Notes under the pieces: model-generated | Seen by the model: the letters and a program-made list of their open reading frames with translations, nothing else | Databases searched by the model: none | Told to the model about the DNA's origin: nothing | Source of the DNA: an uncultured Clostridia bacterium | GTDB taxonomy: Bacteria > Bacillota > Clostridia > Christensenellales > UBA1242 | NCBI GenBank assembly: GCA_934748015.1 | Contig: CAKVHF010000001.1 | Location: forward strand, 188,663 to 252,662 | Length of the DNA: 64,000 nt | Direction: 5' to 3' | Position numbers and translations under genes: made by a program | Shown: positions 14,030-49,389 of the stretch, piece by piece | How the letters are laid out: the number at the start of each line of letters is the position of its first letter | Position numbering within the stretch: position 1 is the stretch's first letter

Positions 14030-14150
14030 GTAAATATTATGCAAAATATTTTGAATTTTACAAAATATGTGCAATACTATTCGTGTTATGAATAATATGT
14101 TTTTTGATAACATTTTAATAGGCGAAAATATGTTGTTAGACACTCTAACA

Positions 14151-14276
14151 ATGTCTATTTTTAGTCGTTTTGCTGAAGTAAACGGGGGGGGGGTATTACT
14201 AGATAAAACTAGCAATATCTTAACTTATATAACTAAATATTTCGATCATAACAACTTAAGTCGAGAGTGTTTTTAG
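14151..14276 (+). CDS. Candidate leader mini-ORF A (41 aa) running through the G10 tract and stopping in the terminator loop
   Basis: ATG 14151 lies at the 3' foot of the hairpin. It reads ...EVNGGGVLLDK...NNLSRECF, with TAG at 14274-14276 inside the terminator loop. There is no clear Shine-Dalgarno, so coding status is unproven. Confidence 0.3.
   Translation: MSIFSRFAEVNGGGVLLDKTSNILTYITKYFDHNNLSRECF
14184..14193 (+). repeat. Homopolymeric G10 tract in leader A
   Basis: Counted directly: aac-GGGGGGGGGG-tattactagataa. The homologous tract in copy B is G6. Confidence 0.95.
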
Positions 14277-14296
14277 CCGACTTAGGTTGTTTTTTC
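14250..14296 (+). terminator. Intrinsic terminator/attenuator in leader A
   Basis: AACAACTTAAGTCG (14250-14263) pairs with CGACTTAGGTTGTT (14278-14291), 14 bp including one G-U, followed by TTTTT. Confidence 0.75.
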
Positions 14297-14330
14297 GTTT
14301 GTTATAGAGTGTAGTTGTAATATTGGTAAT

Positions 14331-14415
14331 GGCTGTGGGGCGACCACTGGCGTGGTCTAGTGGGCAAAAACTTTTGCCCACATGCGAGCCTTTCGGCTCG
14401 CATTGCCCCACAGCC
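14331..14415 (+). ncRNA. GC-rich four-way-junction (cloverleaf-like) element, copy A; class unknown
   Basis: P1 GGCTGTGGGGC / GCCCCACAGCC encloses three hairpins: GACCAC-TGGC-GTGGTC, GTGGGCAA..TTGCCCAC and ATGCGAGCC-TTTC-GGCTCGCAT. It is a GC-rich island in AT-rich DNA, with a second copy at 47131-47211. Confidence 0.5.
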
Positions 14416-14516
14416 TCTGCACATAATTAACCAAACTAATTATTTCAGAAATACATAACAAAAACATATTTTAAACAAAATTTCACATTATAAATTATAA
14501 GGAGAAATTACATATA

Positions 14517-16670
14517 ATGACGAAAAATAGAAAAATGTTGGCATTGGCTATCGCACTGGTTATTATGTTAGTAACCGTCAGTGGCACACTTATTGCAGTG
14601 CTAGTTGCTAGTAACCAGAGTGCCCAGTCCAAGGTGCATGTTAAGTACACTAGCAGTGATGTCAATGTCAAGGTTGAGGCAAAATACTATGTCGGATCAA
14701 CTGGTACAGACATGGTAGACAAGAGCAATAGCAATGCAAAATCAATAGAACTGGATGCTAATAAGACTTCAGGTTCACTTGATCAACTTGCATCTGAGGT
14801 CTCACTAAGCAAAACTAATAGCAAAATAATTTATGAATATAAGTTTACTAACTTATCTACAACTATCCCAGCCACTATTGGTCAGTTGGTTGAAAATGGC
14901 AGTGTAGTTGTTCCAAAAGATAGCAATAACAATGTGAAACTAACATATACATCATCGTCATCATCACTAGGTGCTGGAGCAAGCAGTGATGCTACAACTC
15001 TTAACACCCAAGGTCTTCCAGCAGGAACAACAAGATATGTCTATGTTATTGTGTCTATTGTAGAATTACTTAACGATGTAGACTTCGAGGGTACATTTGG
15101 CTGGGATCTAGCAAAAGGTGAGGCTATTACATCCAATACAACTGGAGGAAGCCAATCTATCGTTGTAGACACCACAGACGTGAAATTGTATAACAAATCT
15201 GCTATGGAGAATATACAATTGGTAGTAGGAGTAGAGAACACCGAACCTGACTACCCAATGATAGAAGATAAATGCTTTACAGGGTGGTATTCCGATTCTG
15301 GCCTTAACAATAAGGTAGAATTTCCAATCATCCCAACCGCCGATACTATACTATATCCTAAGCACGAGACAGCGACAAGCGACCTGACATATATGTACGA
15401 GTCAGAATCTTATGCTGTAGGCGATGACACCTTTGGGTATCAGGGCTCAGAGACAGATATTGTTATTCCTGATGTATATGATGATGGAACAAATGGATTA
15501 CATCCTGTTACAAGGATATCATGGTGTGCTTTTGAGTTTGAAGAAGCGTCCGATATGGTTCAAGTAGACATAAATAGTATCTACATGCCTAACACTATAA
15601 CGGAAATAGGCGAGATGGCTTTTTATGAATGCAGAATATCAAGTATTTTCATTCCGTCCAGTGTAACCATTTTACAGTATACTGCAATTAGTACTTGTCC
15701 AAACTTAACTAATATAGAAGTAGACAGTAATAATGCAACATATCGTAGTGAAAGTAATTGTATAATAGATAGGGCTACTAATGAGTTGGTATATGGCTGT
15801 GTTAACTCTAATATACCAGAAAGTGTCACTAGTATAGGATCTTCTGCCTTTTCTGATTGCAGTGGCTTAACAAGTATAACCATTGGATCAGGTGTCACCA
15901 GTATAGGGGATTCTGCCTTTTCTGGATGCAGTGGCTTAACAAGTATAATAATTCCAGATAGTGTAACTAGTATAAGTGATTCTGCCTTTTCTGGATGCAG
16001 TGGCTTAACAAGTATAACAATTTCCAATAGTGTCACTAGTATAGGATCTTATGCCTTTGATGGATGCAGTGGCTTAACAAGTATAACAGTATCTAGTGGT
16101 AACACAGTATATCGCAGTGAAGGAAATTGTATAATAGAGAAATCCTCTAATACATTAATACTAGGTTGTAAAAATTCAATTATTCCTAGCGGTGTCATCA
16201 GTATAGGGATGAATGCCTTTTTTGATTGCAGTGGCTTAACAAGTATAACAATTCCAGATAGTGTAACCAGTATAGGGGAGAATGTCTTTCGAAATTGCAG
16301 TGGCTTAACAAGTATAACCATTGGATCAGGTGTCACCAGTATAGGGATAAGTGCTTTTTCTTATTGTAGTGGCTTAACAAGTATAACAATTCCAGATAGT
16401 GTCACCAGTATAGAATACTCTGCCTTTTCTGATTGCAGTGGCTTAACAAGTATAACTATAGGTAGCGGAGTGAAACACATAGGAAACAACGCATTTAGCA
16501 ATTGTTCAAAACTAACTAGTGCAACTTTTAAGAATACAACCGGCTGGACTGTAACCACCTCTAGCACAGCAACGACTGGTACAGCAGTAACAATATCAAC
16601 AACTGATCTTGCTGCCAATGCGACACTATTGAAAACTACACATGTAAGTAAGTATTGGAACAGAGCATAG
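14517..16670 (+). CDS. Membrane-anchored surface protein, paralog 2 (717 aa; N-domain + Listeria/Bacteroides-type repeat + long BspA-type LRR array)
   Basis: RBS AAGGAG. Signal anchor MTKNRKMLALAIALVIMLVTVSGTLIAVLVA. Contains CFTGWYSD...LYPK. About 9 near-identical 23-aa LRR units (SVTSIGxSAFSxCSGLTSITI). C-terminal tail NATLLKTTHVSKYWNRA. Confidence 0.85.
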   Translation: MTKNRKMLALAIALVIMLVTVSGTLIAVLVASNQSAQSKVHVKYTSSDVNVKVEAKYYVGSTGTDMVDKSNSNAKSIELDANKTSGSLDQLASEVSLSKTNSKIIYEYKFTNLSTTIPATIGQLVENGSVVVPKDSNNNVKLTYTSSSSSLGAGASSDATTLNTQGLPAGTTRYVYVIVSIVELLNDVDFEGTFGWDLAKGEAITSNTTGGSQSIVVDTTDVKLYNKSAMENIQLVVGVENTEPDYPMIEDKCFTGWYSDSGLNNKVEFPIIPTADTILYPKHETATSDLTYMYESESYAVGDDTFGYQGSETDIVIPDVYDDGTNGLHPVTRISWCAFEFEEASDMVQVDINSIYMPNTITEIGEMAFYECRISSIFIPSSVTILQYTAISTCPNLTNIEVDSNNATYRSESNCIIDRATNELVYGCVNSNIPESVTSIGSSAFSDCSGLTSITIGSGVTSIGDSAFSGCSGLTSIIIPDSVTSISDSAFSGCSGLTSITISNSVTSIGSYAFDGCSGLTSITVSSGNTVYRSEGNCIIEKSSNTLILGCKNSIIPSGVISIGMNAFFDCSGLTSITIPDSVTSIGENVFRNCSGLTSITIGSGVTSIGISAFSYCSGLTSITIPDSVTSIEYSAFSDCSGLTSITIGSGVKHIGNNAFSNCSKLTSATFKNTTGWTVTTSSTATTGTAVTISTTDLAANATLLKTTHVSKYWNRA
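15822..16530 (+). repeat. Intragenic tandem 69-nt (23-aa LRR) repeats, near-identical at the DNA level
   Basis: The core tgcagtggcttaacaagtataac recurs about every 69 nt in two blocks (about 15822-16097 and about 16190-16530). Confidence 0.85.
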
Positions 16671-16807: not shown

Positions 16808-17050
16808 GTGTTTGTATCAAGATGCTAATATGGTGCTGGCAATATTATTTTTTTATTTTTTGTCCGTATTTTTTTGCTTAAATGTTTTAAAATCTCGGTA
16901 GTAATTAATGGTTTTTGGACAAAAATTTACAAAATTTGATATATAATGCCAAAAAGTTTGATTTTTTGGAATAAAAAGAGTAGAGTAAAAACAATTGTGA
17001 AAAATGTTAATAGGCACTATATTTCGTTTGGTTTAGGAGAAAAATTGAAG

Positions 17051-20000
17051 ATGAGATCGATTGCTAAGAACTTATTATATATAGTAGGCATAGTGTGTCT
17101 ACTCTTTTTGTGTTCTTATGCGTTTGTGGCATGTGGGGATGTAAATATATCTAGCCTAACAATAGATATTGATGATAGTTCTTATACATATGATGCAGAT
17201 AGTAAGACTATAAAATTTGCTTATGGCGAATTGGATAATAAGCTAGAAACACTGCTAGCGTCTATTACGGTTACTGCCCATTATGATGACGACTCTGAGG
17301 TTGCAATTATTGAGGGTGATGATTATAAGTTCTCCACAGACATTGTTAAACCTTCTACTGGCAATATTGCACCTGGTAGTTATTATATCCAATACACATG
17401 TGGTGGCAAAAGAGTAAAAATAAATATAGTTGTAGCGTCAACCATTGTTTCTGTCCCACAACTATCGCTAGATACTATCAATGTCGATGAAGGTGGGGTA
17501 ATTAACTTAGAGTACAACAAAGACGGCTATGACCTGCTAGATTTAGGCATATTTGACAATATTTCTGATAAGATCACAATAGGTGGTGATACATTTGCAA
17601 CCGAAGTGGGAGAGTATACAATTACTTTTGCATGTGCTGATCGCAATTATTCTTGGTCAGACGGAACAAAGGGAACAGTTGCTAAGACTGTGACTTGGAA
17701 GATTGTCCCTAAGGCTGTGTTAGTCCCACAATTTACGACCTTATTTTATGAGTATAACCATGACGATAACTACAATGGTATTGCAAATAGTCTAATCGTC
17801 CCTAGTGCTTTTGATAACGATGTATTGACTATTTCCGGTGATCTCAACGCAACTGATGTCGGAGTGTATAATGCAGTAATAAGCCTGAAAGATAGCCACA
17901 ATTATGTATTTGCTGATGGAGCAATGACTAATATCCGTTGGTATATAACTAAGAGGACTTTGGCTGTTCCGACCTTGACTAGCAATCATGTGTCATACTG
18001 TAGTTATGTTGAGCCTTTGGCACAAAGCCCTTATATTAACTTAGACAGTAATTATATTGAAGAAATAATGAACTTTAACACTGGCATCACAGACACAGAA
18101 GGCTTGATCGGTAAGCATACTGCAACTATTGAGATAGATAGTAATTATCGCAATAATTTCCAGTTTGAAGATAATGTATATGTTAAGACTATTGATTGGT
18201 ATCTAGACAAGGGCAGTTATGTTGATATCAATGGTAACTCTCTGTGGACTTTGCCTCAAGATTATGTAATTGCTACAGATAACAATGGCAAAGATATTGA
18301 GTTTGGTGCAGTCTTGGGTGATATAATCGACACAGTTAAGTTGTGCAATGCATGGAAGGATGTCAGCAAGCAAAACCTGGTGGGAGAATATATATTTGAT
18401 AGCAATGCAAAACTATCATATAGCAGTGATTTAGGCAATGCATCTGGCAGTCGTATAATTAATGTCAATATTACATTCCGTCACGGCAGTGGTTATTACA
18501 ATGACGCAATAGTTTCAGTGCCGGTGTTTGTCCACAATATAACTATTGATATTACTCCAGCATGGATTACATCCGCTAGCATGGTGTATGATGGCACAGC
18601 CAAGAGTGTAACGGATAGTGTAGAATGTGACAAAATCTCCAGCATAGAATATTCTTATGCTTATTGTGATGTAGCAACTGGTGAGTACACTCCAATTGAT
18701 GCAAGCGAAATAATAGATGCTGGCACTTATAGAGCAACTGCACACTATGTGTATGACAAGAATCAGTACAGACTATGTATTGGTGATGAGTATTCCGATT
18801 ATTCTACTTATAATTTTGTTATATCCAAGCAGGTTGTTGATGTCGATGATGCTGATATTATATCTGTTGCAAACAACAATACAACATACAATGGCAAATA
18901 TCAGGCTTGCAGTATCTCGCTTAACCCTAAATATAGCCAAGATTTTGATATAACCATTAAGTATTATGCGTTTGACAATCTTATCACAAGTACGCTTTCC
19001 AATCCTAGTGGTTTGCCAAAAGATGTATTGCTAGACATAGACGGCAATGTAGTCAGTTATAGTGTGATTGTAGAGATTGATGCATCCAAGTCTAACAATT
19101 ATGTTCTTTTGAGCAACAACAAGATTTTGGTCAATGGTGGCTTTACTATATCCAAAGCGGTTGTTGTGTTTGATGACTTTATAACTTTGCCGGAGATAAT
19201 TATATATCAGTTGCAAAATACTGATAACTTGACAGTGCCTAGATGTGACTTTAGAGGCGTTAATGAAGAGATAGTAACTGACGCAGAATTTGAGATTGTC
19301 AGCATTGATAATATTGCACGTGATGACGATAGTGTAGAGGTGATCTTTAACATTGTATCCAACAATTACGAAGGCTTGATAGGGGTAATGGCGGAAGTAA
19401 GGCCATTGACAACATCTATCACATATAACAACACTAAGATTTCTTTCCAAGACCTATGTGATATGGAAGAGATTGCGGTCGGTGATGAACTCTTAGTAAC
19501 CACATCGCAAGGGCTAAAACTATATCTAGATGGCGTAGAAACAGATACAATATGTCTTGATACAGCCAACACGGATGTTACTTTGACTATTGCTATTGAC
19601 GAAGAAAATGTTATATTTACTAAAACTTTGCATGTATTTAATCGCAACATAATCCCTAGCATTATCATTACTGACGGCGAAAGATCGATGAGTTGCAATA
19701 TCCACGCAATGTACGAGAATGAATTGGATAATGCTGTAGTCTATAGATATGATTATCTTTCTCGTTCAGTAACAATAACTTTTGATGGCAATATTGCAGA
19801 AAAATATCAATTGTATCTGTCTATAGATAATAGCGATAATATCTTGCTAGAAGACGGCAAAATAACAATTGCAGATGTAAGACTTTGTGACCATATAGAG
19901 GTAACCTACACACAAGATTGCAAAACAATGTCTGCATTGATGTTGTATTTTGAAGAAATCACTGCAATAAATATAGTAAGTGCTACATACAAGAATTTAA

Positions 20001-21115
20001 CTGACGGCACAATAAATAATCTTGAACTTGCAAGAAATATTGCAGATAACGAATATAACTTTGCGATAAATAATGCTTATGTGCAGGCTATATTAGTTGA
20101 ACTAAACAATACACAATATTCGCACACTATTAATTGTATAGATGACTTAGAGTGGGATGTTAAAGATCAGAGTATGTCGCAAAATCTTGTGTTAAAAGTA
20201 TATGATGGCAACAATGCTTGTGTAGAGATGAGAACAATTGCATTGACCTACAATTTTGCGTACTCCAAGAGTAAAATAAGAAACGACTATAACTACATCA
20301 CTACAACAACTGGCGTTGTAAGTAATAGTGTTGCATATCAAGGTGTTGATTGCACTATAGAGGGAGAGGTTGAGTATACATTGTCCGAGAGTGGATTATA
20401 TAGCCTAGATATGTCATTGACTGACGGGGAGTATATTATTCATGATAGCGTAGTTGTTAATTATGTATGTGATATATCCGAGTATATCTCTTATCAAGAC
20501 ACAGTAGATGTAAGGGTTAGATATTTTAGCGATTTTTCGATTTATTGTGCGTGTGCAGATGATTGTGTAATAACAATAAAAAATAGCGATATGTTTGGTG
20601 ATCACAGTAGAGTTGCTAATTACTTGATATGTGACATTTGCGGATTTGATTTTGCATCCGATATCACAGAGGATAATGTTGAAGATTATCTGGCAGGTGA
20701 CAGCGTCCAATACTCTGGTGATTGGACAATAACTGGTTGTAGATTGATAGAAGCAGACTGCAAATATTTACACCTACAACTAACCAACAGTAACACTGGT
20801 GAGGTGGAGTATGTAGTACTATATTTGGGTGAGACAAGCACTTATACAGAGATGTTGTCATCATTTGTTTCTTATAATGGCGACAGTTATTATCTGACTA
20901 AATCGTCAGATGGCGTATACAATTATATTTCTTGGGCTAGTGGCAAAATATTAAAACTTAACGATATAACAACCAACATAGATATTGTTAATGTTGCCAA
21001 TTCTGATTACACTACACAATCTAGCCGTGTTGTCAATGTTGGAGGAGCAGTTGCAGTAGAGATAACTGTGTGCAAAAATTCTAAAACTTGCAATATTTTT
21101 ATATTAGTCGATTAG
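17051..21115 (+). CDS. Very large putative surface lipoprotein (1354 aa) with MBG-like repeats
   Basis: ATG 17051 sits 10 nt after GGAG. Signal peptide MRSIAKNLLYIVGIVCLLFLCSYAFVAC ends in a lipobox-like FVAC. Repeated about 90-aa modules resemble MBG (YGX-type) adhesin repeats (VYDGTAKSV, GEYTITFACADRNYSW..., GTYRATAHYVYD, TYNGKYQ). Confidence 0.7.
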   Translation: MRSIAKNLLYIVGIVCLLFLCSYAFVACGDVNISSLTIDIDDSSYTYDADSKTIKFAYGELDNKLETLLASITVTAHYDDDSEVAIIEGDDYKFSTDIVKPSTGNIAPGSYYIQYTCGGKRVKINIVVASTIVSVPQLSLDTINVDEGGVINLEYNKDGYDLLDLGIFDNISDKITIGGDTFATEVGEYTITFACADRNYSWSDGTKGTVAKTVTWKIVPKAVLVPQFTTLFYEYNHDDNYNGIANSLIVPSAFDNDVLTISGDLNATDVGVYNAVISLKDSHNYVFADGAMTNIRWYITKRTLAVPTLTSNHVSYCSYVEPLAQSPYINLDSNYIEEIMNFNTGITDTEGLIGKHTATIEIDSNYRNNFQFEDNVYVKTIDWYLDKGSYVDINGNSLWTLPQDYVIATDNNGKDIEFGAVLGDIIDTVKLCNAWKDVSKQNLVGEYIFDSNAKLSYSSDLGNASGSRIINVNITFRHGSGYYNDAIVSVPVFVHNITIDITPAWITSASMVYDGTAKSVTDSVECDKISSIEYSYAYCDVATGEYTPIDASEIIDAGTYRATAHYVYDKNQYRLCIGDEYSDYSTYNFVISKQVVDVDDADIISVANNNTTYNGKYQACSISLNPKYSQDFDITIKYYAFDNLITSTLSNPSGLPKDVLLDIDGNVVSYSVIVEIDASKSNNYVLLSNNKILVNGGFTISKAVVVFDDFITLPEIIIYQLQNTDNLTVPRCDFRGVNEEIVTDAEFEIVSIDNIARDDDSVEVIFNIVSNNYEGLIGVMAEVRPLTTSITYNNTKISFQDLCDMEEIAVGDELLVTTSQGLKLYLDGVETDTICLDTANTDVTLTIAIDEENVIFTKTLHVFNRNIIPSIIITDGERSMSCNIHAMYENELDNAVVYRYDYLSRSVTITFDGNIAEKYQLYLSIDNSDNILLEDGKITIADVRLCDHIEVTYTQDCKTMSALMLYFEEITAINIVSATYKNLTDGTINNLELARNIADNEYNFAINNAYVQAILVELNNTQYSHTINCIDDLEWDVKDQSMSQNLVLKVYDGNNACVEMRTIALTYNFAYSKSKIRNDYNYITTTTGVVSNSVAYQGVDCTIEGEVEYTLSESGLYSLDMSLTDGEYIIHDSVVVNYVCDISEYISYQDTVDVRVRYFSDFSIYCACADDCVITIKNSDMFGDHSRVANYLICDICGFDFASDITEDNVEDYLAGDSVQYSGDWTITGCRLIEADCKYLHLQLTNSNTGEVEYVVLYLGETSTYTEMLSSFVSYNGDSYYLTKSSDGVYNYISWASGKILKLNDITTNIDIVNVANSDYTTQSSRVVNVGGAVAVEITVCKNSKTCNIFILVD

Positions 21116-24632: not shown

Positions 24633-24669
24633 TATGTCGCAAAAGCATTATTTTGTGGCATATTTTTTT
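24633..24669 (+). terminator. Intrinsic terminator; copy 1 of a 37-nt identical direct repeat flanking the phase-variable paralog
   Basis: tATGTCGCAAAA-GCATTA-TTTTGTGGCAT + T7 (stem includes G-U pairs). Identical to 25950-25986. Confidence 0.75.
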
Positions 24670-24800
24670 ATTTTGCTACGCAATTTGTTGGACAAATTGT
24701 ATGACAATGATATATTATTGTATTAGATTGAATTGCGGATATTTTGTTGCAATATAGTATTAGTATTGCACAAATTGCCTTAAAAAAAAGGAGTGAAAAG

Positions 24801-25941
24801 ATGAATACAACAAGAAAAATGTCTTTAGCCTTGGTGCTATTGTGCGTGACACTGGCTATTACTGTGATGACATTAGGATTGGTATTGGTTTCTGGAACTC
24901 AAGATGTAATAACCGACCTAGATATTCATTATGCGGGGGGGGGGTGTCACTTTTGAAGTAGGTGATGACTGCATTAACAAGAGTGACTTTGCAACCATCA
25001 AAGTTGACAAGGTTACTAAGACTGCTGTCGTACAACAACCAGCCAATCCCAATCAGTTAGGCAAAACATTTGAGGGCTGGTACACAGATAGTAGTATAAC
25101 TCAGAAGGTAGATAAGTTCCCTGTAACTCTATCTAAGGGTGATGTGCTATATGCCAATTATTATGATGCATCCACATGGCTGACATTGTCTTGGAATGCT
25201 ACAACTAGTTCATACTCTGTCGAAAGGAGTAGCTCGTCTTCTGCAACAGAGGCAATAATTCCAGATATATATGACGATGGGACACATGGGGTTGCAGTGG
25301 TTGATACTATAGGATCATATTCGTTGACTGATGTAACAACTTTGACCAATATTTATTTGTCTAACAACATCACAACAATTAGCGAGAGGGCTTTTTCCGC
25401 TTGTGCTAATGTAACTGCAATTAATGTTCCGGAAAATGTTGCTACAATCGGTGCATATTGGCTACAAAATATGAAAAAGCTAAAAACCATAAATTGGAAT
25501 GCAATAAATGCGGAGTACACTGCAGAATTTTCGCAAACATATAGTGTTGGTTCGCAATACGGAATTGACTTTGTTGTTGGTTACAAAGTGCAGAGTATTC
25601 CTAGATATTTGTTCAATCCACAATCTTCAAAATCTTATGTTAAATCTATTGATATGACCAATGCTACATCGCTAAAGGAAATTGGATCTTGGGCTTTTGG
25701 TGGTTGTTATAAGATAACATCTCTTACAATTCCTGCCAGTGTAGAATTGATTGGAGCATATGCTTTTACCGAATGTACTGGTTTATCCAGTATAACATTT
25801 GAAGTATCAGATAACTGGTATAGATTTTCATCCGAGACAGCAACCACTGGTGGAACTGCGTTGTCTTTAGGCTCTGCTTATACTGATGCTAAATGGATAA
25901 GAGATACTTATGCACAATATTGGTGGAGAAGAATTTCATAA
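24801..25941 (+). pseudogene. Surface protein paralog 3, split by a G10 tract (currently frameshifted; candidate phase-variable gene)
   Basis: ATG 24801 follows AAGGAG and encodes the signal anchor MNTTRKMSLALVLLCVTLAITVMTLGLVLV. This frame ends at TGA 24954-24956, just after G10 (24935-24944). The -1 register continues as VTFEVGDD...FEGWYTD...LRR units...YAQYWWRRIS through 25941. G9 or G12 would fuse both parts. Confidence 0.75.
24935..24944 (+). repeat. Homopolymeric G10 tract inside the paralog 3 coding sequence
   Basis: Counted directly: cattatgc-GGGGGGGGGG-tgtcac. Confidence 0.95.
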
Positions 25942-25949
25942 ATAATTTT

Positions 25950-25986
25950 TATGTCGCAAAAGCATTATTTTGTGGCATATTTTTTT
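25950..25986 (+). terminator. Intrinsic terminator; copy 2 of the 37-nt identical direct repeat
   Basis: Identical to 24633-24669; followed by T8. Confidence 0.75.
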
Positions 25987-35334: not shown

Positions 35335-36954
35335 ATGACAAAAAGTAAAAAAATGTTAGCCTTAGTCATTGCATTAGTTGTTATGTTGGTTGCAGTCAGT
35401 GGTACACTTATTGCAGTACTGGTTGCTGGCAACCAGAGTGCCCAGTCTAAGGTACATGTTAAGTACACTAGTAGTGATGTCAATGTTAAGGTAGAGGCTA
35501 AATACTATGTTGGATCAACTGGTACAGACATGGTAGACAAGAGCAATAGCAATGCAAAATCTATAGAACTGGATGCTAATAAGACATCAGGTTCACTTGA
35601 TCAACCCGCATCTGAGGTCTCACTAAGCAAAACTAATAATAAAATAATATACGAATATAAGTTTACTAACTTATCCACAACCATCCCAGCCACTATCGGT
35701 CAGTTAGTTGAGAATGGCAGTGTTGTTGTGCCAAAAGATAGCAATAACAATGTGCATCTAACATACACATCATCATCATCCGCACTAGGTTTAGGAGCAA
35801 CTAGTGACGCAACTACACTTAACACGCAAGGTCTTCCAGCAGGAACAACAAGATATGTATATGTTATTGTATCTATTGTAGAACTACTTAATAATGTAGA
35901 CTTTGAGGGCACATTTGGCTGGGATCTAGCAAAAGGTACTACTGCTAGCCTAGATACAACAGGTAGCGGAAATAGTATCGTTAATGTTAACACATCTCAG
36001 ACAGGTTTCTACAACGCAGCATCACTACAAAATATAGACCTTATGGTAGGTGTAGAGAACCAAGAACCAGATATCTATCCAATGATAGCTAACAAATGCT
36101 TTACAGGTTGGTACACCAATTCTGCACTTACAACCAAAGCAGTCTTCCCTATGGTAGTTACTGCGGATACTAAGTTGTATCCAAAAAATGAAACTGCCAC
36201 GAGTGGGTTGGTTTATGGGTATAGTGCCTCATCACAAACATATCACATAGGTGATGGAAGTTCATCTTTTGCAGGAACTGCAACAGAAATTATAATTCCA
36301 GACATGTTTGATGATGGCACTAATGGATTAAAAGAAGTAAAAAGTGTTTATCCAGAGGCTTTTAGTGGTTGTGTGAATATATCAGAAGTTGTTTTTCCTA
36401 AGAATTTAGTAGCTATTGGTAGATACGCATTTGACGGATGTTCAAGTTTAACAAGCATTAATCTTCCAAAAGGGTTGATAGAACTTAATCGCTATGCGTT
36501 TAAAGATTGCAATAATGTAAAAAGTATAATAATTGAAAGCGAAAATCTTATGACATTTGATAATAGTGTTTTTTATAATTGTAGTAAGAGTTTAGTCAGT
36601 ATCAAAGTAACATCTAGCAGTTTATATCTAAGATCTGAAGGAAACTGCTTAATAGATACAAGGTATAATATACTGCTTATAGGATGTCGAAATTCAGTTA
36701 TACCTAATTATATAACAGATATTGCACCATGGGCATTTTACAATTGTAAACAATTATCAAATATTAATATACCTGTAAGTGTAGAGTATATTGGCAATGA
36801 AGCATTTTATGGTTGTGACAATTTAACTAGTGTTGTATTTGATGATACAATTGGTTGGAAATCTGGAGGGACGAGTATTGACATTTCTAAAGTAGATTAT
36901 ACTGCGAACGCATTGTTATTAAGAACTGCAGATGGTTCATTTTCTAAATCATAA
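35335..36954 (+). CDS. Membrane-anchored surface protein, paralog 4 (539 aa)
   Basis: RBS GAGGAG. The first ~200 codons are nearly identical in DNA to paralog 2 (MTKSKKMLALVIALVVMLVAVSGTLIAVLVAGNQSAQSKVHVKYTSSDVNVKVEAKYYVGSTGTDMVDKSNSNAKSIELD...). Contains CFTGWYTN...LYPK and divergent LRR units. Lacks the KYWNRA tail. Confidence 0.85.
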   Translation: MTKSKKMLALVIALVVMLVAVSGTLIAVLVAGNQSAQSKVHVKYTSSDVNVKVEAKYYVGSTGTDMVDKSNSNAKSIELDANKTSGSLDQPASEVSLSKTNNKIIYEYKFTNLSTTIPATIGQLVENGSVVVPKDSNNNVHLTYTSSSSALGLGATSDATTLNTQGLPAGTTRYVYVIVSIVELLNNVDFEGTFGWDLAKGTTASLDTTGSGNSIVNVNTSQTGFYNAASLQNIDLMVGVENQEPDIYPMIANKCFTGWYTNSALTTKAVFPMVVTADTKLYPKNETATSGLVYGYSASSQTYHIGDGSSSFAGTATEIIIPDMFDDGTNGLKEVKSVYPEAFSGCVNISEVVFPKNLVAIGRYAFDGCSSLTSINLPKGLIELNRYAFKDCNNVKSIIIESENLMTFDNSVFYNCSKSLVSIKVTSSSLYLRSEGNCLIDTRYNILLIGCRNSVIPNYITDIAPWAFYNCKQLSNINIPVSVEYIGNEAFYGCDNLTSVVFDDTIGWKSGGTSIDISKVDYTANALLLRTADGSFSKS

Positions 36955-46848: not shown

Positions 46849-46975
46849 ATAAAAATTTGTGAAATATTTAATTTTATTTTGAAAAAATATATGATTGTGA
46901 CATAATATAAGTATGAGGAAAAATGTTTGCATTTATAGTTTAATAAGAGATTTTACATTGTTAAATGTTTTAACA

Positions 46976-47098
46976 ATGGCTTCTTTTAGGCAAGATGTAA
47001 TAGTTCAACGGGGGGTATTACTAGATAATTCTAGTATTATCATAACCGATATAACTCAATATAACGATAATAACAACTTAAGTCGATGGTGTTTCTAG
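46976..47098 (+). CDS. Candidate leader mini-ORF B (40 aa) running through the G6 tract and stopping in the terminator loop
   Basis: ATG 46976 lies at the hairpin foot. It reads ...VQRGVLLDN...NNLSRWCF, with TAG at 47096-47098 in the terminator loop. No clear Shine-Dalgarno. Confidence 0.3.
   Translation: MASFRQDVIVQRGVLLDNSSIIITDITQYNDNNNLSRWCF
47010..47015 (+). repeat. Homopolymeric G6 tract in leader B
   Basis: Counted directly: caac-GGGGGG-tattactagataa. Confidence 0.95.
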
Positions 47099-47118
47099 GC
47101 AACTTAGGTTGTTTTTTC
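47072..47118 (+). terminator. Intrinsic terminator/attenuator in leader B
   Basis: AACAACTTAAGTCG (47072-47085) pairs with CAACTTAGGTTGTT (47100-47113), followed by TTTTT. Confidence 0.7.
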
Positions 47119-47130
47119 GTATTTTTTATA

Positions 47131-47211
47131 GGCTTTGGGCGACCACTGTCGTGATCTAGCGGGCGTTTCCGCCCACCATGCGAGCCTTTTTGGCTCGCAT
47201 GACCCAAAGCC
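47131..47211 (+). ncRNA. GC-rich four-way-junction (cloverleaf-like) element, copy B; class unknown
   Basis: P1 GGCTTTGGG / CCCAAAGCC encloses GACCAC-TGTC-GTGATC, GGGCG-TTTC-CGCCC and ATGCGAGCC-TTTTT-GGCTCGCAT. P1 differs from copy A by a compensatory G:C to T:A change. Confidence 0.5.
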
Positions 47212-47313
47212 CTCGCTTGCTTGTATCAACTATTTTCCCTCAAATAAAAATGTATTGTATACAAAGCAAATATATTTGTACAAAAATAAGAATACGTTAA
47301 AAAAGGAAAAATA

Positions 47314-49389
47314 ATGATAACAAAAAACAGAAAAATGCTAGCGTTGATAATTGCATTGGTTATAACATTGGTTTCGGTCAGTGGGACTCTTATTGCAGTA
47401 TTGGTTATCAGCAACCAGAGTGCACAATCAACAGTTCATGTTAAATATACCAGTACTGATGTTAACGTAAGAGTAGAAGCTAAGTATTATGTAGGTACGA
47501 CAGGTACAGACATGGTAGACAAGAGCAATAGCAATGCAAAATATCTAGATTTAGATGCTAATAAAACATCAGGTTCTCTTGATCAACCATCTAACGAAGC
47601 GGTCGAGCTAAGCAAAACTAATAACAAAATAATCTATGAATACAAGTTCACCAACTTATCTACAACTATCCCAGCAACTATAGGTCAGCTGGTCGAAAAT
47701 GGCAATGTTGTTGTTCCAAAAGACAGCAATAACAATGTAAAACTAACATATACATCGTCTTCAACATCCCTAGGTTCAGGAGCAACTAGTGACGCAACTA
47801 CACTTAATACCCAAGGACTTCCTGCAGGTACAACAAGATATGTCTATGTTATTGTGTCTATTGTAGAACTACTTAATGATGTAGATTTTTCTGGCAGTTT
47901 TGGTTGGGATCTAGCGAAAGGTGAGGCTATTACATCCAATACAACTGCAGGTAGTCAATCTATCGTTGTAGACACCACAGACGTGAAATTGTATAACAAA
48001 TCTGCTATGGAGAATATACAATTGGTCGTAGGAGTAGAGAACACCGAGCCGGACTACCCAATGATAGAAGACAAATGTTTTACTGGTTGGTATACTGATG
48101 AAAGTTTAGAAACTAAAGCAGTTTTTCCATTAACTCCAACTGCTGAAACCAAATTGTATCCTAAGTATGAAACAGCAACAAGTGATCTTACTTATGTGTA
48201 TAATGAAGCATCACAAAGCTATTTTGTTGGGGATGGAACTACATCATATTCCGGGTCGACAAAAAATATTGTTATTCCTGATACATATAACAATGGAACC
48301 AATGGATTACATGCGGTAACATGTATTAACGATTGTGCGTTTTTAAAAACTAGTATTATTAGTGGTATTGTAATTCCAGGTTCTGTTAGTAATATAAGTA
48401 TAGGAGATAATAGGGCATTGAAAGGCGGCATAACTACAGTGTCTGTATCTTCGGCTAATCCTGTATATAAGAGTGAGAATACATGTATAGTACGCAAGGC
48501 TGATAATTGCTTAATATACGGAGGCCAGAAATATGATATACCAAAATATGTAACATCAATATATGATTATGCATGTTTTGGTTCATATGCTACAACAATT
48601 GCATTAAGAGAAGGTGTTGTTAGTATTGGAAGGCATGCTTTTTATAATAATAAGTTTGCTGAGCTTATTATTCCATCTAGTGTTGTCAATATTGATGAAT
48701 TGGCATTCTCTTCTTGTATGCACTTAAAAAGGGTTACTTTTAAAGAAGGCTTACTTAGTATAGGAAAAGAGGCATTTAGAGGCTGTGTTTCTCTAACAAG
48801 TGTTACAATTCCGAGCACAGTAACCAGTTTGGATCGTCTAGCTTTTATTAATTGTACAGCATTAAATTCTTTTTGGGTTTCAGATAATAACAAAGTGTAT
48901 AAGGGTGAAAGTAATTGTGTAATGTTAAGAGCAGAACCTACTGTTTTGTATTGTTGTTTTGCAAATGGTACTATTCCTGCCTATATAACTAAAATAGGTG
49001 ATTATGCATTTTACTATAATACGGCACGTGGCTCGCTTCATATACCAAAATCTGTAACGGAAATAGGTGTTAGTGCTTTTGAATCTTCTTCAATTAAGGG
49101 TAGCGTCGTTATACCAGATAGTGTAATTACTATTGGAAATTCTGCTTTTAAAAGCTGTAACATAACAAGTGTGACAATTGGTAATGGCGTTAAAAGTATA
49201 GGGGTAAACGCTTTTTATTATTGTGGTAACTTAACAAATATTACATTCAATACAATAACTGGCTGGACTGTCACAAATGACAGTAGCGCAACCACTGGAG
49301 ATCCAGTTACCGTGTCAAAATCTGATACAAAAGCTAATGCGACACTACTAAGAACAACACATGCAAGTAAATATTGGCACAGGGCATAG
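47314..49389 (+). CDS. Membrane-anchored surface protein, paralog 5 (691 aa)
   Basis: Signal anchor MITKNRKMLALIIALVITLVSVSGTLIAVLVI, the family N-domain, CFTGWYTD...LYPK, a divergent BspA-type LRR array, and the tail ANATLLRTTHASKYWHRA. Confidence 0.85.
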   Translation: MITKNRKMLALIIALVITLVSVSGTLIAVLVISNQSAQSTVHVKYTSTDVNVRVEAKYYVGTTGTDMVDKSNSNAKYLDLDANKTSGSLDQPSNEAVELSKTNNKIIYEYKFTNLSTTIPATIGQLVENGNVVVPKDSNNNVKLTYTSSSTSLGSGATSDATTLNTQGLPAGTTRYVYVIVSIVELLNDVDFSGSFGWDLAKGEAITSNTTAGSQSIVVDTTDVKLYNKSAMENIQLVVGVENTEPDYPMIEDKCFTGWYTDESLETKAVFPLTPTAETKLYPKYETATSDLTYVYNEASQSYFVGDGTTSYSGSTKNIVIPDTYNNGTNGLHAVTCINDCAFLKTSIISGIVIPGSVSNISIGDNRALKGGITTVSVSSANPVYKSENTCIVRKADNCLIYGGQKYDIPKYVTSIYDYACFGSYATTIALREGVVSIGRHAFYNNKFAELIIPSSVVNIDELAFSSCMHLKRVTFKEGLLSIGKEAFRGCVSLTSVTIPSTVTSLDRLAFINCTALNSFWVSDNNKVYKGESNCVMLRAEPTVLYCCFANGTIPAYITKIGDYAFYYNTARGSLHIPKSVTEIGVSAFESSSIKGSVVIPDSVITIGNSAFKSCNITSVTIGNGVKSIGVNAFYYCGNLTNITFNTITGWTVTNDSSATTGDPVTVSKSDTKANATLLRTTHASKYWHRA

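Follow-up and report, generated by a model that had tools for sequence, protein, structure and literature searches.

Paralog 3 and its guanine tract

In a 64,000-nucleotide (nt) stretch of contig CAKVHF010000001.1 from an uncultured Clostridia bacterium (the window), the gene considered here, paralog 3, codes for a putative leucine-rich repeat (LRR) surface protein and is split into two open reading frames (ORFs) by ten consecutive guanines (G10). Besides paralog 3, four paralogs bearing the Pfam domain LRR_5 are found in the window, at 959-2359, 14517-16670, 35335-36954 and 47314-49389. Paralog 3 is monocistronic, with a candidate promoter and a terminator of its own, and is directly followed by spoIIGA and sigE, the host being an uncultured spore-former, with a DnaK 91-93% identical to that of its nearest named relatives, all of them Clostridiales or Clostridia metagenome-assembled genomes. 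The features of the gene are as follows:

24689-24716, + strand: candidate sigma-70-type promoter, TGGACA and a TG-extended TATATT separated by a 16-nt spacer (consensus match only, 10/12)
24788-24793, + strand: Shine-Dalgarno sequence AAGGAG, 7 nt ahead of ATG 24801 (read from the sequence)
24801-24956, + strand: upstream ORF of 51 codons plus TGA, encoding an N-terminal membrane anchor, then TDLDIHYAG, then a glycine run (from the translation)
24931-25941, + strand: downstream ORF as given by gene callers, 336 amino acids (aa), beginning MRGGGV and open to TAA 25939-25941
24935-24944, + strand: homopolymer G10 between a C and a T, at which the frame shifts; inside codons 45-48 of the 379-codon gene (read from the sequence)
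24954-24956, + strand: stop codon TGA ending the upstream frame, within CAC UUU UGA A (read from the sequence)

The ORF opening at ATG 24801 gives a 51-aa product, MNTTRKMSLALVLLCVTLAITVMTLGLVLVSGTQDVITDLDIHYAGGGCHF. As for the downstream ORF, it shares 26 nt with the end of the upstream one, and its called start at ATG 24931 has no Shine-Dalgarno sequence ahead of it; the real coding part is 24945-25941, which comprises Flg_new, a BspA-type LRR_5 ectodomain and a tryptophan-rich C-terminus. When the tract was edited in silico from G7 to G13, a single ORF was obtained only with G9 (379 codons, ...HYAGGGVTFEVGDD...) and with G12 (380 codons); G7, G8, G10, G11 and G13 all lead to a stop within 50-53 codons. 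The predicted junction peptides are ...DLDIHYAGGGVTFEVGDDCINK for G9 or for a shift inside the run, ...HYAGGGGVTFEV... for G12, and ...HYAGGGCHFEVGDDCINK for a +1 shift at UUU UGA, where the four U's would permit re-pairing by +1 into the downstream frame, a role in frameshifting that is speculation. In its tract length, its frame toggling and its intact gene, the locus has the structure of a simple-sequence-repeat contingency locus, for which the poly-G/C threshold is at least 7 (PMC6321876). A first-pass annotation of the window is borne out on all these points: the positions of the tract, of the ATG with its ribosome-binding site and of the TGA agree with the sequence, a change of -1 or +2 does restore a single ORF, and the tract does part the signal anchor from the ectodomain.

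The G10 tract is not a chance feature. With a G+C content of 36%, the window holds G runs of 1-5 nt, one G6 and two G10, where a first-order Markov model predicts 0.005 runs of at least 10 in 64 kb. GGG is, besides, the rarest glycine codon (6.1% of glycine codons, 3.7 per 1000), and no in-frame GGG-GGG was found elsewhere in 13,491 codons from 30 ORFs.

Upstream of the coding part, the candidate promoter is identical in L002, the one other lineage in which it was read (contigs carrying other alleles are designated L001 onwards), and the ribosome-binding site is kept across lineages. Directly ahead of the latter lies a run of eight adenines (A8, 24782-24789), replaced in other lineages by AAGAAAAA or AAAGAAAAA of equal length, a difference that reads as a substitution and not as a length change.

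Predicted product and homologs

The fused protein matches LRR_5 (PF13306) with 91.4 bits against a gathering cut-off of 27.7 (E=5e-26) and Flg_new (PF09479) with 36.2 bits against a cut-off of 27 (E=7e-9), in agreement with the family features ascribed to it in the first-pass annotation; it is predicted to be a BspA-type LRR protein with Flg_new (Listeria-Bacteroides repeat). At its N-terminus, basic residues are followed by a hydrophobic stretch of about 24 residues. The AlphaFold model of a natural 380-aa allele, with a mean predicted local distance difference test score (pLDDT) of 74, presents a helix at residues 3-29 and, after a linker, a beta-rich ectodomain, the pLDDT being below 50 over residues 23-49, which hold the glycines. 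According to this model, the tract would encode part of the linker between membrane anchor and ectodomain, and GGG or GGGG should be tolerated because the glycines sit in this low-confidence linker. No LPXTG motif or lipobox was seen in the product, which would be exposed at the surface.

P0004 (404 aa) and P0019 (339 aa), intact homologs recovered from other metagenomes, have the N-terminus of paralog 3, M-N-x-RKLSL...VLVSGTQ-V-TDLDIHYAG, in common and continue in frame past TDLDIHYAG with non-glycine residues. Since they share this N-terminus and read on in frame, the fused single-ORF architecture is ancestral, and a membrane anchor is present in every intact homolog and paralog. The gene is now called as a 336-aa protein without signal and would as such be mis-scored as cytoplasmic or as a pseudogene.

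Alleles of the tract in other assemblies

The exact 336-aa MRGGGV product, which needs G10, is encoded on 16 contigs, to which the variants P0122, P0124 and P0002 add 4, 2 and 2, respectively. Altogether, 24 contigs have G10, either read or implied; they represent at least four lineages and come from several studies and assemblers. It was read directly in L003-L009, the sources being European Nucleotide Archive (ENA) assemblies with scaffold_, k141_ and NODE_ naming as well as Logan contigs, and the assembly study codes point to human and pig gut samples. A scan of the Joint Genome Institute (JGI) metagenome contigs for the coding flank TCACTTTTGAAGTAGGTGATG and for GGGGGGTATTACTAGATAA returned no match, the organism appearing to be absent from that collection. 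The alleles are:

window, L003, L004, L007, L008 and L009: G10 followed by TGTCAC; split
L005 and L006: G10 followed by TATCAC; split
L002: G10 followed by TCAC, one GT unit lost; still out of frame
L001: GGGGGGAGGAGG followed by TGTCAC; in frame, 380 aa

A uniform G10 is thus met in the plain split alleles when tract length is compared across related assemblies. In L001, the codons GCG GGG GGA GGA GGT hold a tract of 12 nt broken by two synonymous G-to-A changes. L001 is placed among the G10 lineages, with a synonymous divergence (dS) of 0.046 from L009, 0.07 from the window and 0.20 from L005. It is a natural in-frame (ON) allele, and it looks like the outcome of a length change followed by locking ON.

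Guanine tracts are also found in the leaders of two sister genes, as had been noted in the first-pass annotation:

14184-14193, + strand: G10 in the leader of the LRR_5 paralog 14517-16670; length polymorphic between lineages
47010-47015, + strand: G6 in the leader of the LRR_5 paralog 47314-49389; homologous position

Both stand at homologous positions, each directly ahead of TATTACTAGATAA. The tract at 14184 is G10 in the window and in L074-L078 (six assemblies), G8 in L067-L069, three assemblies of the L007 lineage, and TC-G5-C in pig-gut lineages. The L007 lineage, with its G8 leader, is separated from the window by a dS of 0.014 in paralog 3. Because this leader tract differs between lineages (G10, G8 or G5), G tracts do change length in the host species.

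Purifying selection on both halves

Synonymous and non-synonymous differences were counted after Nei and Gojobori over the 330 codons that follow the tract, and P is binomial, against neutrality; dN/dS denotes the ratio of non-synonymous to synonymous divergence:

window vs. L005: 33.8 synonymous, 15.2 non-synonymous, dS 0.17, dN/dS 0.12, P 3.6e-12
window vs. L009: 13 synonymous, 4 non-synonymous, dS 0.061, dN/dS 0.09, P 3.5e-6
window vs. L002: 13 synonymous, 2 non-synonymous, dS 0.061, dN/dS 0.04, P 2.5e-7
window vs. L001: 15 synonymous, 8 non-synonymous, dS 0.070, dN/dS 0.15, P 1.4e-5

Over the pairs other than window vs. L005, dN/dS ranges from 0.04 to 0.28. In the 44 codons ahead of the tract, window and L005 differ by 5 synonymous and 0 non-synonymous changes (P=9e-4), and no extra stop or frameshift was found in paralog 3 in any allele compared. 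These counts show purifying selection on both halves, both of which would be translated often enough to be selected. By contrast, gene decay can be recognised in the neighbouring 1389-aa gene, which in each of five lineages is broken by a nonsense or 4-nt lesion of its own. The flanking iscS, iscU, rrf2 and 336-aa genes have a dS of 0.18-0.21 between the window and L005 lineages, the same as paralog 3; the locus is therefore vertically inherited, and the G10 state spans the deepest split sampled.

A proposed slippage-operated switch and its alternatives

On a modest balance of probability, paralog 3 is a slippage-operated ON/OFF switch of the type described in Bifidobacterium breve, with a minority of ON cells. 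It would be a live gene for a membrane-anchored BspA-type LRR and Flg_new surface protein, the expression of which would be gated by the slippage-prone G10. With the consensus tract, translation from ATG 24801 would end after 51 codons and the ectodomain would not be exported (OFF), while the loss of one G or the gain of two at replication, by slipped-strand mispairing, would fuse the ORFs into one of 379 or 380 aa (ON). The protein would be displayed by a minority of cells, and it is in those cells that selection would act on it. Tract length would have to fluctuate within populations, and slippage of DNA, rather than of RNA or ribosome, would be the source of the full-length protein.

Regarding the uniformity of the tract, bbr_1889 of B. 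breve UCC2003, with its Sec signal in a 65-aa upstream ORF, its annotated G10 and its productive slip of -1, is instructive: error-corrected sequencing in culture returned 93.4% G10 and 6.5% G9, and about 10-12% change in each direction was recorded in mice (PMC9187656). A uniform consensus need not mean recoding, because in B. breve a G10 consensus coexists with ON minorities at the DNA level. An invariant G10 fits equally a fixed frameshift decoded by RNA or ribosome slippage and a switch with a minority of ON cells; DNA switching and decoding at the RNA or ribosome level are, besides, not mutually exclusive. Of the phase variation proposed in the first-pass annotation, the split between anchor and ectodomain, the frame logic and the intact gene all stand, but no consensus allele with an uninterrupted tract of another length was encountered.

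This last point heads the observations that weigh against a switch. No 379-aa (G9), approximately 366-aa (G11) or pure-G12 product was found in a collection of 15 billion proteins, nor any G9, G11 or pure G12 consensus allele among some 26 contigs. All four plain split lineages (window, L007, L009 and L005/L006) carry exactly G10 at a dS of up to 0.19, and G11, which is equally OFF, would be expected to turn up under free drift of the tract. As for the two departures, the GT loss of L002 and the interrupted 12-mer of L001, neither is a simple one-G slip. The data consist of consensus contigs, in which within-population tract mixtures are not visible. Since a single human cohort supplied many of the 24 contigs, which may represent the same strain, the independent evidence amounts to about 4-6 lineages.

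The alternative that survives best, though rather unlikely, is that G10 is a fixed, selected genotype from which recoding yields the full-length protein constitutively and in small amounts. Three routes are conceivable, namely (i) transcriptional slippage on the C10 template giving G9 or G12 mRNAs, (ii) +1 slippage of tRNA-Gly within GGG GGG GGG, these codons being rare and slowly decoded, and (iii) a +1 slip by tRNA-Phe at UUU UGA, for which the G run would serve as an internal Shine-Dalgarno-like element in loose analogy to prfB. In favour of recoding, exactly G10 is kept in four lineages at dS 0.014-0.19 with purifying selection on both flanks, and a frameshift kept at one site with selection on both flanks is the criterion for programmed frameshifts (PMC3711429). 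The frame transition is indeed found at the same site, with both sides selected, in the window, L007, L009 and L005/L006 (dS up to 0.19). Over a divergence of only dS 0.014 in paralog 3, moreover, the non-coding leader tract changed by 2 nt and the coding tract remained unchanged. The rarity of GGG among glycine codons also speaks for it, as does the 0-frame UGU CAC UUU UGA A, in which the ectodomain frame is reached by a +1 shift on four U's. For the herpesvirus thymidine kinase, compensatory frameshifting at a low level on a G run is documented (PMC5009743), and the OFF states of frameshifted simple-sequence repeats can stay leaky (bioRxiv 10.64898/2026.04.01.715767).

What recoding lacks is a recognised stimulator, the RNA fold of 24880-25020 being without significant structure (z=-1.1). 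The G run ends 6 nt before UUU, unlike in prfB, where the Shine-Dalgarno-like element is spaced 3 nt from the slip site. More generally, a canonical slippery motif with its stimulator (the 3-nt spacing of the prfB type, an A or T run of at least 8-9, or an RNA hairpin) is absent at paralog 3. Runs of G are poorer sites of transcriptional slippage. The sites known for it in bacteria are runs of A or T (PMC1088944, PMC3711429). Nor is the site strictly kept, since L002 has another frame relation following its GT loss and L001 needs no shift. It is distinctly unlikely that G10 acts as a fixed recoding site where slippage on the rare GGG codons or on U UUU GA sets a constitutive, sub-stoichiometric dose of the surface LRR protein; if true, the locus would represent a programmed frameshift conserved at a run of G, in a bacterial gene that is chromosomal and not mobile.

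That a slippage mutation killed the gene and left both ORFs as relics, i.e. a plain pseudogene, is improbable. The consensus is admittedly out of frame in nearly all assemblies, and the gene is dispensable, as it is missing from pig-gut lineages, where five other genes occupy the interval from iscU to spoIIGA. It had been reasoned in the first-pass annotation that a uniform G10 together with further inactivating mutations would denote a pseudogene; the tract is uniform, but not one allele has a second lesion, whereas the 1389-aa neighbour shows independent lesions in five lineages. With a dN/dS of 0.12 over 330 codons at dS 0.17 (P=3.6e-12) and 0 non-synonymous vs. 5 synonymous changes in the upstream part, the selection test largely refutes this explanation, which would need a very recent inactivation repeated in each lineage. 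The candidate promoter identical in L002 and the ribosome-binding site kept across lineages likewise argue against decay.

A homopolymer error of sequencing or assembly, with a true tract of G9 and an intact gene, had also been envisaged. It is true that G tracts are hard to size and that their lengths in databases can be wrong (PMC9187656), but the 24 contigs with G10 come from different studies, with three ENA naming styles besides Logan. An error in one assembly is excluded because the contigs span several studies and assembler-style names; moreover, the same pipelines reproducibly give G8 vs. G10 at the leader tract, lineage by lineage, and resolve the interrupted allele of L001. An error of this kind is thus very improbable. 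Just as hard to credit is that the 336-aa ORF is expressed alone from ATG 24931 as a cytoplasmic LRR protein, for instance by termination-reinitiation: gene callers do report this ORF and its start overlaps the end of the upstream ORF by 26 nt, but no Shine-Dalgarno sequence precedes it, the product would be without the membrane anchor that every intact homolog and paralog carries, and the selection on the anchor-coding part would be left without explanation.

Leaders of the sister genes and surroundings of the locus

That the family as a whole is stochastically switched, as had been suggested from the leader tracts, is weakly favoured by the length variation of one of them; against it, a leader G tract occurs in only 2 of the 5 LRR_5 paralogs of the window, and a promoter scan detected no consensus promoter on the + strand spanning either tract. 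Switching across the family is a plausible lead rather than an established result. A -35/-10 pair read by hand, TTGCTG and TATTAC (window 14170-14199), with an 18-nt spacer including the G10 (16 nt at G8), fails the -10 criteria and was not adopted; it occurs in the window lineage only, neither the 47010 leader nor the pig-gut orthologue having a counterpart. A search of genome contigs for the leader motif TATTACTAGATAANNCTAG returned 45 loci, all of them chance or unrelated occurrences and none with a preceding G tract or leader.

About 30 nt upstream of each leader G tract lies a conserved palindrome (14130-14160, TTGTTAGACACTCTAACAA; 46955-46985, CATTGTTAAATGTTTTAACAATG), the arms of which are kept while the loop sequences differ; it may be an operator or a hairpin. 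Both leaders contain an insert of about 190 nt (14240-14425 and 47062-47225) that is absent from the orthologous pig-gut leader. Flanked by the imperfect direct repeat ACTAA(A/T)TATTTC, these inserts hold a terminator-like hairpin (AACAACTTAAGTCG...CGACTTAGGTTGTTTTTTCG) and, within a long outer stem, a G+C-rich element of several hairpins. They may represent a small mobile element or else a regulatory leader RNA that is as yet unclassified. No Rfam match was obtained for the leader 14100-14520 at E<=1, and the whole window yields only six tRNAs at gathering thresholds. The protein encoded downstream of the first leader, LRR paralog 2 (14517-16670), varies between lineages, with lengths of 717, 711, 705, 728, 627 and 488 aa in a comparison of the window with L003, L007, L009, L055 and L068, probably through gain and loss of LRR units.

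Paralog 3 itself is bracketed by two copies of an intrinsic terminator, TATGTCGCAAAAGCATTATTTTGTGGCATATTTTTTT, which form a perfect direct repeat of 37 nt:

24633-24669, + strand: copy 1, intrinsic terminator after the iscU region
25950-25986, + strand: copy 2, terminator of paralog 3

The Logan contigs L004 and L008, of 1340 nt, end precisely where these copies lie. Between iscU and spoIIGA, pig-gut lineages have radical-SAM/LysR, 335-aa, 475-aa, NUDIX and AP_endonuc_2 genes and no paralog 3, and L009 has a NUDIX gene along with paralog 3. Because gene content differs between the window, pig-gut and L009 lineages, this gap is a variable islet, and paralog 3 may have been gained or lost by recombination between the 37-nt repeats.

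The 1389-aa ORF at 16946-21115 has no Pfam match and is intact in the window. Its lesions, four independent nonsense mutations (e.g. GAA to TAA, CAA to TAA) and one CTAT duplication, lie in L055 (8034-8070), L062 (2696-2811), L061 (3266-3273), L066 (8939-9012) and L002 (4576-4686). Breakage driven by homopolymers is ruled out, as no lesion in the five lineages falls at a homopolymer, and the pattern looks like the recurrent, independent loss of a large protein.

Comparison with known systems

Most of what is understood of phase variation by simple repeats comes from pathogens, and among gut commensals the B. breve pilin is the best-studied case of such a layout. Literature searches found no report of a simple-repeat switch in uncultured gut Clostridia. 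The locus would join a known class of simple-repeat switches, and the deep conservation of exactly G10 under selection could be more than that. Such LRR proteins may be variable targets in the interaction with host or phage, and mixtures of tract lengths in strain-level metagenomic reads could report on selection within the host.

The sortase-dependent pilin genes bbr_0113a/b and bbr_1889a/b of B. breve are switched by replication slippage at an intragenic G tract (Penno et al. 2022, PMC9187656). As in paralog 3, the organism is a gut commensal, the signal is carried by a short upstream ORF (65 aa in bbr_1889a vs. 51 aa), the gene is split by G10 or G11 with the reference OFF and a productive event of -1 (+3n), and the annotated start of the second ORF has neither ribosome-binding site nor signal. 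Unlike paralog 3, the B. breve genes belong to an Actinomycetota of high G+C content, a G10 being far more anomalous in Clostridia at 36% G+C, and encode an LPXTG pilin at the head of an operon, in place of a BspA-type LRR protein that is encoded monocistronically and anchored in the membrane by its N-terminus. For the pilin genes, mixed tract lengths were measured and pili were formed by mutants locked ON, whereas paralog 3 is known from consensus sequence alone. The likeness suggests that the uncultured spore-forming Clostridia species considered here may use a comparable trick, in which a G tract parts the export signal from a BspA-type, adhesin-like body.

BspA-like proteins also phase-vary by simple sequence repeats in Candidatus Mycoplasma girerdii (PMC5476646). 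There too, a multi-copy LRR family of the BspA/TpLRR type was found in metagenomic data with a consensus often OFF by frameshift; in this Mollicute, however, the repeats are CA dinucleotides and variation was seen in reads, in contrast to the homopolymer and consensus contigs of paralog 3.

The poly-G/C loci of Campylobacter jejuni, Neisseria and Haemophilus resemble paralog 3 in that seven or more G stand in a row within a gene for a surface protein, close to its 5' end, and the frame sets ON or OFF. Campylobacter also has non-variable homologues with an interrupted tract, comparable to L001 (PhasomeIt criteria), and its overall tract distribution has G9 at 53% and G10 at 26% (PMC6321876). 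In these pathogens, tract length varies between isolates, unlike the consensus of paralog 3, which is invariant across lineages.

For the 5' poly(A) of inlA in Listeria monocytogenes, reversion was measured to be about 1000 times as frequent as point mutation (Orsi et al. 2010, PMC2831843). Here as well, a homopolymer near the 5' end of the gene for a Firmicute LRR surface protein leads by frameshift to a very short product. The tract of inlA is, however, of the A7 type, the LRR family is that of internalins, and truncated alleles are strain-specific, not species-wide.

The remaining parallels concern recoding. With prfB, paralog 3 has in common a 0-frame stop just past a codon able to re-pair by +1 and a G-rich, Shine-Dalgarno-like element upstream, but the 3-nt spacing and the CUU UGA C context of prfB are absent. 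As in prfB and in the frameshifts of endosymbionts, the frameshift is kept at one site, on a slippery run, with both sides selected. In endosymbionts, ancient homopolymer frameshifts are reported to be rescued by transcriptional slippage on poly(A) (cited in PMC3711429, named in PMC5009743); the runs of the insect endosymbionts are thus of A, unlike the G run of paralog 3. With its invariant G10 under strong purifying selection, paralog 3 offers a clean natural test case for setting switching at the DNA level against RNA or ribosome decoding of G runs.

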